This document shows positions 8,481 to 19,209 of a DNA stretch of 19,209 nt, piece after piece. Where the stretch lies: positions 1 through 19,209 of IMG/VR virus record IMGVR_UViG_2684622670_000013. One strand, given 5' to 3'. The number at the start of each line of letters is the position of its first letter. The first letter of the stretch is position 1. Under the pieces are notes generated by a model. It ran no database searches. It saw only the letters and a list, made by a program, of their open reading frames with translations, and was not told the DNA's origin. This DNA is from a virus (lineage: Duplodnaviria > Heunggongvirae > Uroviricota > Caudoviricetes). The translations under genes and the position numbers were made by a program.

Positions 8481-8759
8481 ATGAAAGCAATTGAACACTC
8501 TTACAAAGAGATGATGCACGCACGATTGGTTGCGAGTGGGTATACCCCAGAAGAAGCAGACAAACTCGTAAACCATGATGAAACAGACTTAGCCGCCGTG
8601 ATAAAGCTAAATTTGGCATATTCTCTATCCCTGTGTAGTTTAGAGAGCACACTCAGGTCCATTGTTGCGTCACCTAAATCAACCTCGGCAGACGCGGTAG
8701 AAGCGATGAAGTTGCTAGTAGAGCTATCAGCACGGCATGAGCACTTATTCAAGTCCTAA
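8481..8759 (+). CDS. Hypothetical small protein (92 aa)
   Basis: ORF with protein-like composition (EEADKLVNHDETDLAAVIK...) and a weak ribosome-binding site. Its 3' end overlaps, on the opposite strand, the 3' end of 8745..9161. Coding status uncertain. Confidence 0.4.
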   Translation: MKAIEHSYKEMMHARLVASGYTPEEADKLVNHDETDLAAVIKLNLAYSLSLCSLESTLRSIVASPKSTSADAVEAMKLLVELSARHEHLFKS

Positions 8760-9161
8760 CTTGTCATGGAGTATTTTTGCAAACAACTTCGTGGCAATCT
8801 GCTTTGCGGCCGCCATAGGGGCTTCTGAAAAATCTTTTTTAATTCTTTCTTGAATTGGATTTTGACTAAGAGCCATGGCAAAGTCATGACCTTCTGATGT
8901 GAGAACAATGTCACATTCACCACCATGAAGTATTCCGTCTCCGCTAAAGTAGATTCCGGTGATATCCTCAAAGGAAGAGTATTTCAACTCTCTATCTCTG
9001 ATAATCCCTTGGTCAACCAGTAGGGTCAGGTGAAAAATTAGCTTAGACAGATCTTCTTGGTTTTTTTCGTAGAAACCTAAATCTCTGATTGTTATGTATG
9101 GTTTATCGGAGGTTAAGAACGTCGACAACACTTCTTTCAGATAGTCATAATCAATTTTCAT
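8745..9161 (-). CDS. Hypothetical protein, 138 aa (possibly DUF2513-like winged-helix protein), last gene of the RHH operon
   Basis: GAAGGA ribosome-binding site. Starts 10 nt after the stop of the upstream RHH gene (9172..9408), implying co-transcription. The DUF2513 resemblance is recalled from the N-terminal pattern MKIDYDYLKEVL and is unverified. Confidence 0.62.
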   Translation of the reverse strand: MKIDYDYLKEVLSTFLTSDKPYITIRDLGFYEKNQEDLSKLIFHLTLLVDQGIIRDRELKYSSFEDITGIYFSGDGILHGGECDIVLTSEGHDFAMALSQNPIQERIKKDFSEAPMAAAKQIATKLFAKILHDKLGLE

Positions 9162-9171
9162 ACGTTGTCCT

Positions 9172-9408
9172 TCACTGTTTGTCCTTGCTGTACATTTTTG
9201 TTAAGGTCTCAAGAAGCGCCTCTTTGAACTTTTCAGCTTCACGAGAAGCGAATTCCTCTTTGCTACTCACATCGTTGGAAACAGCATCAAGGAGAATTTG
9301 AACAATTTCAGCATTCATAGATCTTCTGTTGTTCTTTGCACGCAACCTTATTTTCTCTTTTAACTCATTGGAAACGCGGATATTTATCTGCGGCTCTTCT
9401 CTAGACAT
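9172..9408 (-). CDS. mnt: Mnt-like ribbon-helix-helix repressor
   Basis: 78 aa. Its N-terminus INIRVSNELKEKIRLRAKNNRRSMNAEIVQIL parallels the P22 Mnt/Arc RHH motif (FNFRMP...AEANGRSMNSELLQIV), and the C-terminus LLETLTKMYSK resembles the Mnt C-terminal helix. GGAGG ribosome-binding site 5 nt upstream. Confidence 0.75.
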   Translation of the reverse strand: MSREEPQINIRVSNELKEKIRLRAKNNRRSMNAEIVQILLDAVSNDVSSKEEFASREAEKFKEALLETLTKMYSKDKQ

Positions 9409-9455
9409 GATGCCTCCGTGGTGTAACCGTAATGCAACCTCGTAATATCGTCTTC

Positions 9456-9698
9456 TTACTTGATGTTTACTTCCTTAATGGCTGCAACCTCTCTCTCAAG
9501 AGCTATTAATCTTTCGGTTAAGGAAGAAAGGCTAAGCGAGTGAACATTTTTATTTTCTTCTGCCCATGCACTTAGAGCTGCAACCATTTCTGCATTTAAA
9601 GATCTGCCATTCGCCTCAGCTAACGCGGTTAGGCGATCCTTTATCTCCACAGGAAGTCGAAGATTAACTTGTGGGTTCTTGTACCTGCGTTCAGACAT
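9456..9698 (-). CDS. Arc/Mnt-family ribbon-helix-helix DNA-binding protein (second paralog)
   Basis: 80 aa. VNLRLPVEIKDRLTALAEANGRSLNAEMVAAL matches the Arc-family RHH signature. First gene transcribed leftward from the divergent promoter region. Confidence 0.78.
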   Translation of the reverse strand: MSERRYKNPQVNLRLPVEIKDRLTALAEANGRSLNAEMVAALSAWAEENKNVHSLSLSSLTERLIALEREVAAIKEVNIK

Positions 9699-9803
9699 CA
9701 GCGTATCCTGAATAATTTTTTACCACAGGATATGTAGGTATCTATTGACTATCAATGCGTACCTAAATACTATGTATGCGTACCACATGCAGCGGAGGAT
9801 GCA
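9699..9803. promoter_or_regulatory. Divergent promoter/operator region (Pant-like rightward, Pmnt-like leftward)
   Basis: Candidate rightward promoter: -35 TTGACT (9745-9750), 17 bp spacer, -10 TACTAT (9768-9773), then GGAGG and ATG at 9804. A 13 bp palindrome ATTGA-cta-TCAAT (9744-9756) overlaps the -35. Direct repeats of GCGTACC (9758-9764 and 9778-9784) flank the -10. The repeats could be operator half-sites. Confidence 0.5.
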
Positions 9804-9944
9804 ATGAAGGTAAAAACACTGCGTATGCCAGAGAAGTTAGAAAAAATCCTTGAAGAGAAAGCAAAGGAAGAGTGTCGCTCATTTAGCGCAGAAGTAATTA
9901 AAAGGGTGTTGGACAGCTTGAAAAGAGAGGGGATAACAGTATGA
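9804..9944 (+). CDS. arc: Arc-like ribbon-helix-helix repressor (46 aa)
   Basis: Not in the ORF track (too short). The translation MKVKTLRMPEKLEKILEEKAKEECRSFSAEVIKRVLDSLKREGITV aligns position by position with P22 Arc (...FNLRWPREVLDLVRKVAEENGRSVNSEIYQRVMESFKKEGRIGA). GGAGG ribosome-binding site. Its stop overlaps the next gene's start (ATGA). Confidence 0.72.
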   Translation: MKVKTLRMPEKLEKILEEKAKEECRSFSAEVIKRVLDSLKREGITV

Positions 9945-10144
9945 GTAAAGAATGTTGTTTCTGCGGCATTAGCGAATCAGACGCTGATCAAACATACATT
10001 TACTCTAAAGAAACAGGTCGGATGCTGTGTAGTGACTGCGTGTTGGACATCATAAGATACAAGCATCTTGGATGTTCTGCCAGCATTAGCAATATAGGTG
10101 AAGTATACGAAGGGAAAGATATAACTGATAGAGCAGAAAGTTGA
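9941..10144 (+). CDS. Small zinc-finger protein, ClpX N-terminal C4-type-like (67 aa)
   Basis: CCFCGISE...(17 aa)...CSDCVLDIIR has the CxxC...CxxC spacing and flanking residues of the ClpX-type zinc-binding domain (CSFCGK...CDEC in ClpX). Translationally coupled to the arc-like gene and upstream of the antirepressor. Confidence 0.6.
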   Translation: MSKECCFCGISESDADQTYIYSKETGRMLCSDCVLDIIRYKHLGCSASISNIGEVYEGKDITDRAES

Positions 10145-10207
10145 AGCCCCAACTGCTGTAACAGTCAGGGCTTCGGTATCGTAAAACCACGCATAGGAAT
10201 TAACGAC

Positions 10208-11067
10208 ATGAAAAGTATAGCAACAGCGGTATCTACTATCAACGTGCCATTCCACGGCGCAGAGCTTTATGTTGTCAATCACAACGGCGAACCGTACACC
10301 CCAATGAAACCTATCGTTGAGGGAATGGGCTAGACTGGAAATCTCAACATAAGAAGATTTCTCAACGCTTCTCGAAGGGTATGGTGGAAATCACCATACC
10401 TTCTGCCGGTGGGGTGCAAGCCATGATTTGTATGGCTTTGCGAAAATTGGCAGCTTGGTTGAACAGCATCAGTCCTAACAAAGTCCGCCCTGAAATCCGC
10501 GACAAGGTAATCCAGTATCAGGAAGAGTGTGACGATGTGCTCTACGAGTACTGGACTAAAGGCCATGTGGTTAACCCGCGCAAAGCTAAAAAGACGTTGC
10601 CGGGAAAAATCACCACTGAACAGCAGGAAGCCATTAAACAACTCGTCATGAGTCGCGGTCAGTCTCTGCCAAAAGAAAAACAGGCGAAGGCGATGATCAC
10701 CATGTGGTCGTCACTGAAATCCCATTTTGGATGTTCGTACAAAGAAATCAGTGAGGAGCAGTTTACCGAAGCACTATCACTTGCGGCTCGTATTCCACTT
10801 GAAGGCGAATTCATCGGCAAGTCGGAACATAATGAGATGAGTTGTTTTGATTGGAGGATGAATGTTCATAACCTGAACTCGGCGTGCATTCACCTGGATG
10901 CCATGTACAGAATATGGAGAGACGAAATGGAACCCGCTTTACGATTGCTTGGCTCTCCGGTTGCGGCAAGATTTTACGGAAGAATTGCAGATTGCTATTC
11001 CGTAACTGCAAGCGTTAAGAAAAGTCTGGAGGATGCCGCAGGGCTGAAAGGCTTACAACCATTTTAA
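10208..11067 (+). pseudogene. ant: Phage antirepressor (P22 Ant-type, AR N-terminal domain), apparently disrupted by a 1-nt frameshift near 10327-10330
   Basis: ATG at 10208 encodes MKSIATAVSTINVPFHGAELYVVNHNGEPYTPMKPIVEGMG, then stops at 10331-10333. The next frame continues ...LDWKSQHKKISQRFSKGMVEITIPSAGG... to 11067. Joined, the sequence reads ...KPIVEGMGLDWKSQ..., which is the conserved core of the antirepressor N-terminal domain. The break lies in a GGG run. Confidence 0.62.
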
Positions 11068-17745: not shown

Positions 17746-18021
17746 TTATTTGTCTAATGTTGGAAGCCGCGGCACGTCGTATGCAAGAACGTGCCGCGGT
17801 TGGCTGGTAAACTTTTCGATAGCACGAGTATTGAATGATTTCCAGCCGTTACCGATTTTACATGTTAATACTTCCACATCATTTAAACGGTTTGTAAGTT
17901 CCTGGTAGGTAATTCTCCCGTTAACATGCCTATGGCGCCGTTTGGTTTCAGGCTTATCTTTTTTTGCGTAATAAAAGGTGAGACAAAAATGAGACACACA
18001 ACGCTTTGTACTGGATTGCAA
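17746..18021 (-). CDS. Hypothetical small ORF downstream of integrase (91 aa), coding status doubtful
   Basis: Only ORF in the junction. Basic, Cys/His/Arg-rich composition; contains the 11 bp palindrome; no recognisable motif. Confidence 0.25.
   Translation of the reverse strand: MQSSTKRCVSHFCLTFYYAKKDKPETKRRHRHVNGRITYQELTNRLNDVEVLTCKIGNGWKSFNTRAIEKFTSQPRHVLAYDVPRLPTLDK
17767..17799. repeat. Perfect 11 bp inverted repeat CCGCGGCACGT-(11 nt)-ACGTGCCGCGG
   Basis: Read directly from the sequence. Lies in the tail-fibre/integrase junction, inside the 3' end of the weak minus-strand ORF 17746..18021. Confidence 0.6.
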
Positions 18022-18051
18022 GGCTTTGTGCCATTCGATAGTTAAGGTGGA

Positions 18052-19209
18052 TCACTCCACCTTTTCATCAAGCCAGTCCGCCCACCACTGCATCATTTCT
18101 CTGCGCTTATCGAGATACTGAGCATGGTTGTAAATTCCACGCACAGAACCGCCGTTGGCATGTGCCAGTTGCACTTCAATAGCATCAGCGGGCCATTCGT
18201 GCTCGTTCATAATCGTGCTGAATTCATGCCTGAATCCGTGACCGCTTTCCAGACCCTCATATCCGATTTGTTTGATCACAAGTAGCACTGCGTTCTCACA
18301 GATTGGCTTCTTCTTATCGTTGCGCCCGGCAAAAACAAACTCTGATACTGGTTTGGTGATTGAGATTAGCGTAGTGAGAAGTTCAACTACTTGGTCTGAC
18401 ATAGGAACCACATGAATTTTGCGTCCCTTCATCACACTGGCGTCAATGGTGATAATCCTGTTTTCAAAATCGACGTTCTTCCATAGCATGGAACGAAGCT
18501 CTTTCGTTCTTAGGGCTGTGTAGCGTAAAACTTTGGTCGCAATGAGCGATACGATACTTCCTGAAAATGTTGCCAGTGCTTTGTTGAATGCCGGGAGCTG
18601 GTCTGCAGGAAGAAACGGGAAGTTCTTCTTGCGGTATCCTTTCATGGCGTCTGCAAGGTCAGGTGCCGGGTTATATTTAGCCCTTCCGGTGACAATAGCG
18701 TAACGGAAAACCTCGCCGCATCTTCTGCGTGCTTTGTTGGCTCGCTCCATTGCACCGCGATCTTCAAACCTGCGGATTACTTCAAGAAGTTGCATCGGCT
18801 CAATATCCTGAATTTCAAGGCTGCCGATGATAGGTAAAATGTCGTCATCAAACATTTTTGCAAGTTCATTTGCATAGCCTACCGACCAAACTTGCTTCTT
18901 GTGCTCGTACCATTCCTTGTAAACTGCACTAAAGGAATTGTTGTTAGACGAAGCCTTTTTCGCCTTTACCGGATCTATGCCAACCGAGATGTCTTTCCTC
19001 GCAGTCCATGCTTTATCCCTTGCCTCCTGCAAAGTCATAAGCGGATATTTTCCGACAGTCAGGATTTTCTCCTTACCGTCAATCTTGTAGCGAAGCTGCC
19101 AGACCTTTTTTCCAGATACAGGGACATAAAGGTACAGACCATTACCATCAACAAGTCGGTATGGTTTCTCTTTCGGCTTTGCCGCTTCAATCTGTTTAAC
19201 GGTGAGCAT
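18052..19209 (-). CDS. int: Tyrosine site-specific integrase (P4-type)
   Basis: 385 aa. N-terminus MLTVKQIEAAKPKEKPYRLVDGNGLYLYVPVSGKKVWQLRYKIDG is the characteristic P4-family arm-binding region. The C-terminal catalytic domain has ...GHGFRHEFST... and ...AHANGGSVRGIYNHAQY (candidate catalytic Tyr). The start codon is the last three bases of the window (reverse complement of ...gagcat). Confidence 0.9.
   Translation of the reverse strand: MLTVKQIEAAKPKEKPYRLVDGNGLYLYVPVSGKKVWQLRYKIDGKEKILTVGKYPLMTLQEARDKAWTARKDISVGIDPVKAKKASSNNNSFSAVYKEWYEHKKQVWSVGYANELAKMFDDDILPIIGSLEIQDIEPMQLLEVIRRFEDRGAMERANKARRRCGEVFRYAIVTGRAKYNPAPDLADAMKGYRKKNFPFLPADQLPAFNKALATFSGSIVSLIATKVLRYTALRTKELRSMLWKNVDFENRIITIDASVMKGRKIHVVPMSDQVVELLTTLISITKPVSEFVFAGRNDKKKPICENAVLLVIKQIGYEGLESGHGFRHEFSTIMNEHEWPADAIEVQLAHANGGSVRGIYNHAQYLDKRREMMQWWADWLDEKVE

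Follow-up and report, generated by a model that had tools for sequence, protein, structure and literature searches.

A DUF2513-like cargo gene in a P22-type immunity-I module of a contractile-tail prophage

The stretch analysed here, 19,209 nucleotides of a tailed-phage genome (IMG/VR record IMGVR_UViG_2684622670_000013, Caudoviricetes; hereafter the window), carries a leftward set of three small genes at 8745–9698, two of which encode ribbon-helix-helix (RHH) proteins and the third an uncharacterised protein of 138 residues. With a probability of roughly 0.6, we propose that this locus represents the leftward arm of an immunity-I (immI) module of the P22 type, or "ant moron", residing in a contractile-tail prophage. 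The identity of the locus as a compound ant moron seems very probable, and the proposal that the 138-residue protein is an accessory factor expressed in the lysogen is put forward more tentatively. A sequence-only reading of the window had likened the locus to the P22 immI region; the analogy turned out to be stronger than that reading could know, since a divergent arc gene, the sar RNA and ant are all present. Coordinates refer to the window unless a locus identifier (L###) is given.

The three genes lie on the minus strand. The operon starts with mntA (9456–9698), encoding an 80-residue RHH protein of the CUS-3 type, continues with mntB (9172–9408), encoding a 78-residue Mnt-type RHH repressor, and ends with the DUF2513-like cargo gene (8745–9161; 138 residues, phrog_585). 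The gaps between them amount to 47 nt (9409–9455) and 10 nt (9162–9171), and each gene is preceded by a Shine-Dalgarno-like motif: AGGAT 6 nt 5' of the mntA ATG, GGAGG 4 nt before mntB and AAGGA 6 nt before the 138-residue gene. The listing of open reading frames (ORFs) and the sequence agree exactly with the sequence-only reading in these gaps and in a ribosome-binding site for each gene, and its operon-like arrangement holds. From the leftward promoter-like site at 9755–9727 to the end of the 138-residue gene, a consensus scan of the minus strand found no promoter- or terminator-like site except one weak promoter-like match near the 3' end of that gene, and we infer that mntA, mntB and the 138-residue gene are co-transcribed. 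Their Pfam and PHROG matches, together with low ratios of nonsynonymous to synonymous substitution rates (dN/dS), indicate that the three frames are real genes rather than chance ORFs. Compared with orthologues at 76–98% identity, dN/dS is 0.05–0.16 for mntB and 0.13–0.23 for the 138-residue gene; for ORF92, a 92-residue frame that converges on the latter, it is 0.15–0.28. Purifying selection acts on all three genes tested.

Both small proteins belong to the Arc/Mnt family of RHH proteins, as had been supposed, according to the Pfam family Arc and to the solved structures of the Mnt and Arc repressors. MntA matches Pfam Arc at 1.8e-10 and, in the PDB sequence search, 1mnt at 1.2e-5 and Arc at 1.5e-5; it has a heptad-like helix at its C-terminus and is 63% identical to ECRS218_0005 of CUS-3. 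MntB matches Pfam Arc at 3e-12 and 1mnt at 6.4e-9 across residues 3–64, and its C-terminus aligns with the tetramerisation region of P22 Mnt. Neither protein matches PF11423 (Repressor_Mnt) at E<=0.1.

The other arm of the module is transcribed to the right. It begins with an arc-like gene (9804–9944, plus strand), divergent from mntA, which encodes a 46-residue RHH protein matching Pfam Arc at 3.7e-8; the annotation pipeline PGAP labels its orthologue an Arc family or YlcI/YnfO family protein. A cysteine-rich ORF of 67 residues follows (9941–10144, plus strand; phrog_7150, 3.4e-50), the start of which overlaps the arc stop codon. A sar antisense RNA like that of P22 immI lies on the minus strand at 10139–10206, opposite and just upstream of the ant start. 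It matches Rfam RF00262 over the full length of the model (1–68 of 68) with 82.3 bits against a gathering score of 43 (E 5.4e-17), overlaps the 3' end of the 67-residue ORF and ends 2 nt before the ant ATG. The antirepressor gene ant (10208–11067, plus strand) is split into ORFs of 41 and 228 residues, which match P22_AR_N at 3.3e-8 and 2e-23. Alignment with CUS-3 ant and the frame translations locate a 1-nt deletion near 10326/10327 that breaks the reading frame, and the same split is present in the independent assemblies L027 and L029. Judged from its sequence, ant is probably a pseudogene here.

An intact ant frame was thus not found among the features by which an ant moron is recognised, P22_AR_N being present and the frame broken. 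Found were a Mnt-type gene transcribed away from ant, a divergent Arc-type first gene, sar, and an insertion in the late operon with variable cargo. The insertion lies between a 591-residue gene at the tape-measure position and the baseplate genes. A contractile tail is indicated by the E217 sheath and tube, Baseplate_J, Pam3_gp18 and Sheath_initiator families, all of them encoded on the source contig GCA_001514785.1.

The 105 bp between mntA and arc (9699–9803) appear, from a consensus scan and from their repeats, to form a divergent promoter region with a putative operator. A rightward promoter-like site lies at 9745–9773 (TTGACT-17-TACTAT) and a leftward one at 9755–9727 (TTGATA-17-TATCCT), and both -35 hexamers overlap within a 31-bp palindrome, TAGGTATCTATTGACTATCAATGCGTACCTA, at 9735–9765. 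The pattern of this palindrome occurs once in the window and gave 0 matches in 200 shuffles. It is a candidate operator for Mnt- or Arc-type repressors. The exact 9-mer ATGCGTACC is also repeated in this region, at 9755–9763 and 9776–9784, 21 bp apart on either side of the rightward promoter's -10 element, as is TACCACA, at 9721 and 9781; both repeats may be additional repressor sites.

The term compound refers to the two tandem mnt genes, the origins of which are distinguished by BLAST. Positions 9541–10400, comprising the N-terminus of mntA, the operators, arc, the 67-residue ORF, sar and the N-terminus of ant, are 92% identical to CUS-3. Positions 8419–9439, comprising mntB with 31 nt of its leader, the 138-residue gene and the region to its left, are instead 87–91% identical to the Salmonella-type relatives L030, L031 and L033. 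These have no mnt other than the 78-residue one, which lies directly next to a divergent promoter region of its own. We conclude from these alignments that a CUS-3-like mntA/operator/arc block has apparently recombined in front of an older mntB-DUF2513-ORF92 unit. MntB is the ancestral partner of the DUF2513 gene, as seen in related prophages. Its own promoter and palindrome (GTATAACCGTTATAC in L030) are gone, and since only 31 nt of the leader remain, mntB and the 138-residue gene would most simply ride on the mntA promoter. A search of the window for the L030-type palindrome with <=3 mismatches gave 6 matches against 3.6 expected, which is not above chance. MntB, without its operator here, might be idle or might act in trans on heterologous ant morons.

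Exchange within the unit has gone further in other relatives. Window positions 8398–9253 are 97.5% identical to L001; this locus and L032 share just the C-terminal part of mnt and the cargo, and the N-terminal, DNA-binding half of their mnt differs. The swapping of this half among relatives implies repeated exchange of immunity specificity, during which the C-terminal part of Mnt, the 10-nt spacer and the 138-residue gene have been kept together. The spacer is identical in all close relatives, including those with a single mnt in front of the DUF2513 gene. Other E. coli P22-like prophages have mntA directly followed by unrelated small cargo genes.

The 138-residue protein had been called DUF2513-like in the sequence-only reading, and the label stands in substance, although not by the protein's own Pfam score. 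Against PF10711 (DUF2513) it reaches 12.4 bits (E 0.21), under the Pfam cut-off of 29.6 bits; it matches PHROG 585 at 2e-17. A profile search of 1.84 billion representatives returned 516 relatives at E<=1e-3, nearly all of about 130–145 residues, and 78 of the 122 relatives scanned match PF10711 (best 9.2e-15), some of them matching YjcQ as well. Moreover, PGAP names a 99%-identical E. coli protein "DUF2513 domain-containing". By these sequence matches, the protein is classed as a divergent DUF2513/YjcQ-like member of phrog_585.

The AlphaFold2 model of the protein (mean predicted local distance difference test score, pLDDT, 87.8; predicted template modelling score 0.81) consists of three helices, a beta wing and three C-terminal helices, so that the predicted fold is a winged helix with C-terminal helices. 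A Foldseek search of the model against PDB and BFVD gave nothing below E 1e-3, the best viral matches being uncharacterised or YjcQ, and a PDB sequence search with the family profile yielded chance-level matches only. Longer members of the DUF2513 family were scanned for fused domains without an informative fusion. No toxin, enzyme or defence signature was found in the protein with Pfam, NCBIfam or PADLOC, and in PADLOC-DB v2 none of the six proteins scanned (the 138-residue protein and its neighbours) had a match at E<=1. A full-text literature search returned a single mention of DUF2513, incidental and in an unrelated paper, with no tested function found, and a search for YjcQ and winged-helix literature was uninformative.

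The protein is acidic (isoelectric point, pI, 5.06; net charge -7), as is most of its family (median pI 5.3). The putative recognition helix, residues 36–50, is rich in Asp, Glu and hydrophobic residues and has almost no basic ones, and the wing Arg, 98% conserved in the family, is Val in the window clade. A basic, DNA-contacting recognition helix or wing as in MarR or PadR was therefore not found, as judged from the sequence of the protein.

The genomic contexts of its homologues differ between the close and the distant ones. Close homologues (76–98% identity) always lie 10 nt downstream of mnt and in the same prophage family; they are rare, with one occurrence in 5,426 complete E. coli genomes. 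Distant homologues (24–47% identity) have no RHH neighbour and stand alone. Linkage to RHH genes, the conservation of which the sequence-only reading had made a test of its proposal, is accordingly kept among the close homologues and absent among the distant ones. Mu-like prophages carry a DUF2513 homologue antisense between gam and gemA, a lambdoid prophage of Serratia symbiotica carries one antisense between the Q antiterminator and holin genes, and further distant homologues are found near integrases or between lysis and terminase genes. A scan of genome contigs returned one distant locus only. This scattered placement, often antisense to lytic operons, points to a moron and argues against an obligate RHH partner and a toxin-antitoxin pair.

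The gene also has a convergent partner. ORF92 (8481–8759, plus strand; 92 residues) converges on the DUF2513 gene with a 15-nt 3' overlap and is intact in all close relatives. When all ORFs of the fetched loci were searched with phmmer and jackhmmer, the only matches besides its orthologues were the convergent, 3'-overlapping neighbours of DUF2513 genes in Mu-like loci, which are about 30% identical to it over the full length and share motifs with it. Such convergent, overlapping pairs are found in L005–L023 and L046–L049 (for example, 3001–3312 with 3274–3690 in L046), and an abundant type of E. coli Mu-like prophage has the same pair with a 39-nt overlap. On both backbones, that of the window and that of the Mu-like prophages, ORF92 has the orientation of the lytic operon and the DUF2513 gene the opposite one. 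The conserved convergent DUF2513/ORF92 pair is new here, although its novelty is modest. ORF92 belongs to no Pfam family, and its homologues were confined to Enterobacteriaceae in the search; its AlphaFold2 model, of moderate confidence (pLDDT 74.6), is all-helical with six helices.

ORF92 bears a GY-x-x-EA motif, which we take to resemble motifs of the small terminase subunit (TerS) and of domain III of RuvA; the RuvA matches reach only E 0.17–0.9. A small-terminase role for either ORF92 or the 138-residue protein, an idea that arose from one distant homologue located just before large-terminase and portal genes, was rejected as unsupported, the contexts described here not being packaging modules.

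From these parts, a working scheme can be suggested. The leftward promoter in the 105-bp region would transcribe mntA, mntB and the 138-residue gene as a single unit, and the rightward promoter would transcribe arc, the 67-residue ORF and ant; sar would be made as an antisense RNA against the leader of ant. At immI of P22, a Mnt-type tetramer bound at the operator represses the rightward arc-ant promoter in the lysogen. By analogy, a Mnt-type tetramer on the palindrome would shut the rightward promoter in the lysogen and the leftward operon would stay on, supplying MntA, MntB and the winged-helix protein, while sar would dampen ant translation. The 138-residue protein would work by binding protein or nucleic acid rather than by catalysis, with a likely part in conflicts between phages or in the regulation of lytic genes. 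During lytic growth, ORF92 and the transcription through it might antagonise or silence the DUF2513 gene. The expression of the protein in the lysogen is supposed because its homologues occupy moron slots, often antisense to lytic operons; we hold this part of the scheme at somewhat less than even odds.

Several observations weigh against this scheme. Since ant is frameshifted, the module may be decaying and its repressors may have lost their target, and since the L030-type palindrome is not above chance in the window, MntB may be idle here. The mnt transcripts of the CUS-3-like phage Kapi1 were undetected in lysogens (PMC12922286), and expression of the leftward operon in the lysogen therefore cannot be assumed. 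Some distant homologues of the 138-residue protein are co-oriented with lytic genes. The pairing with ORF92 is not universal, either: ORF92-like genes occur without DUF2513 in some other Mu-like prophages, and a 47%-identical Serratia homologue of the DUF2513 protein occurs without ORF92, so that the 3' overlap could keep the two genes physically linked without any common function. Finally, the acidic charge, the atypical helix and the change of the wing Arg to Val make canonical DNA binding by the 138-residue protein doubtful.

The last point bears equally on the closest rival explanation, in which the 138-residue protein is a conventional winged-helix transcription factor that adds a third regulator to the module. 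Its C-terminal helices would hold together a DNA-binding dimer, as in PadR or MarR proteins, which might repress, for example, ORF92, the 152-residue gene at the left end of the moron, or genes of resident or incoming phages. The predicted fold may suit such a role, the charge and helix composition do not, and we regard it as somewhat unlikely. A passive origin has also been considered, in which the mntB-DUF2513-ORF92 block is a remnant of recombination and only mntA, arc and sar matter, these being perhaps vestigial themselves because ant is broken. However, the dN/dS values of 0.05–0.28 for mntB, the 138-residue gene and ORF92 extend across relatives with synonymous divergence (dS) of up to 0.6, and the reading frames are intact in every relative examined, which renders the remnant explanation quite improbable.

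The toxin-antitoxin-like reading has fared worst. According to it, mntB and the 138-residue gene would constitute a type II pair that stabilises the prophage or aborts infection. The pair indeed resembles type II operons in its gene order, its spacing of 10 nt and its leading RHH gene, the RHH proteins have weak FitA-, HicB- or RelB-like matches, and a YafO-toxin-like gene occupies the equivalent cargo position of CUS-3. However, the 138-residue protein falls into no toxin family in Pfam, NCBIfam or PADLOC, and its predicted winged-helix fold is none of the known toxin folds. Homology of MntB to P22 Mnt covers residues 3–64, and the protein ends in a Mnt-like C-terminus, not in a toxin-binding tail; relatives differ in the N-terminal, DNA-binding half of the upstream RHH gene while keeping the cargo. 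The RHH linkage itself is confined to the close clade, being absent in Mu-like, lambdoid and other contexts. We consider a toxin-antitoxin pair highly improbable and conclude that the 138-residue protein is ordinary phage cargo, not a toxin. The other options of the sequence-only reading, exclusion or regulatory cargo controlled by the Mnt-like proteins, agree with the position of the gene and may apply. Within the preferred assignment, that of a cargo gene on the leftward arm of an ant moron, a bolder version can be formulated: the DUF2513-like gene and ORF92 would form a mobile two-gene prophage module, not recognised before and shared by Mu-like prophages and ant morons. The winged-helix protein would be made in the lysogen to exclude or abort superinfecting phages or to silence their genes, and ORF92, transcribed with the lytic operon, would neutralise it together with antisense transcription and let the resident phage grow, giving a defence gene with protein-based self-immunity. 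This version is speculative and, at present, unlikely.

Further features of the window complete the picture of the element. Just upstream of ORF92, an intrinsic-terminator-like site (8434–8455, plus strand), a GC-rich hairpin followed by TTTTTT, would serve rightward transcripts. The hairpin at 8434–8449 was also considered as the terminator of the leftward operon and rejected, there being no T-run on the minus strand and the fold being no better than those of shuffled sequences (z -0.97). At the left end of the moron, an ORF of 152 residues (7915–8373, minus strand) starts with a signal-peptide-like N-terminus (MKSRFFTIAIFSSVLLSLAAYAAS) and belongs to no family in Pfam, PHROG, NCBIfam or PADLOC. 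In relatives, its slot is filled by other genes, of 77, 121, 133 or 209 residues, and is a second variable cargo position. Embedded among the virion genes at about 2567–3067 (plus strand; 14095–14595 in L027), and directly preceding the tail-terminator gene, is a homing-endonuclease-like gene with HNH_3/AP2 domains. The integrase end of the window (17776–19209, with the integrase at 18052–19209 on the minus strand) is 94–96% identical to the integrases of CUS-3, HK633 and HF4s, which are P22-like and lambdoid phages. The virion genes are of the contractile-tail type and unrelated to those of the phages that share the integrase; for the tail genes, sequenced phages of the collection give no match above about 70% identity.

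These findings extend the known range of the ant moron. The P22 immI type with sar is not limited to P22-like podoviruses and also occurs within the tail operon of a family of contractile-tail prophages. The moron can, in addition, turn compound when one mnt-cargo unit comes to lie behind a further mnt. DUF2513/phrog_585, a family of several hundred clusters at 50% identity, is tied here to a maintenance-repressor operon and to a convergent partner gene. If the cargo has no phage phenotype, the locus would be one more example of variable moron cargo.

Comparison with known systems places the cargo protein closest to PF10711 (DUF2513), PF09639 (YjcQ) and PHROG 585, with which it shares a length of about 135 residues, an N-terminal MKID, an FH-L-LL helix, the RLT-x-x-GHDF wing junction and the predicted winged-helix fold; it differs in falling under the Pfam threshold and in the replacement of the near-invariant wing Arg. 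To winged-helix regulators of the MarR/PadR type it appears similar at the level of the predicted fold, with a helical C-terminal extension, but no sequence-level relationship was detected, and its apparently acidic surface and atypical recognition helix set it apart. The BstA system of the P22-like phage BTP1 serves as an analogy only. BstA is reportedly a prophage defence gene whose self-immunity element is a DNA site rather than a protein. Alike would be a gene at a prophage-expressed position and an element that spares the phage's own lytic growth, the role hypothesised for ORF92; there is no homology between the two systems, and PADLOC gives no match for the DUF2513-like protein.

The ant moron of CUS-3 (CP000711) resembles that of the window in its 92% DNA identity from the mntA N-terminus to the ant N-terminus and in having two tandem mnt genes followed by cargo. 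Its second mnt, however, encodes a close homologue of P22 Mnt that matches PF11423, and its cargo comprises a 199-residue protein, a YafO-toxin-like protein and hkcB, with no DUF2513 gene. The YafO-like gene, ECRS218_0008 (3575–3994 in L002, minus strand; PF13957, 3.2e-11), is annotated as hypothetical and is preceded by the gene for the 199-residue protein, which has no assignment. The arc gene and the 67-residue ORF are unannotated in the CUS-3 record, where the stretch (5169–5650 in L002) is labelled only "bsq2 boundary sequence". CUS-3 is apparently without arc according to the epsilon34 paper, whereas the 92%-identical sequence of the window (9804–10144) encodes a clear Arc-family protein.

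The ant moron of P22-like phages has been described as a fast-evolving insert in the late operon, composed of mnt, arc, sar and ant together with unrelated cargo such as sieA and hkcB, and sieA is the variable cargo adjoining mnt in P22 itself (PMC2629481). The window shares with P22 immI (Villafane et al. 2008, PMC2629481) the leftward Mnt-type gene, the divergent Arc-type gene, sar and ant, the insertion inside the late (virion) operon, and unrelated cargo downstream of mnt, for which sieA and hkcB/C are the P22-type examples. It differs in its two tandem mnt paralogues, its frameshifted ant and the 67-residue ORF between arc and ant, in a cargo consisting of a DUF2513-like gene and its convergent partner, and in its host element, a contractile-tail prophage with E217/Pam3-like tail genes rather than a P22-like podovirus. 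The ant moron as such is therefore already described; new are its setting in a contractile-tail prophage and the DUF2513/ORF92 pair that it carries.

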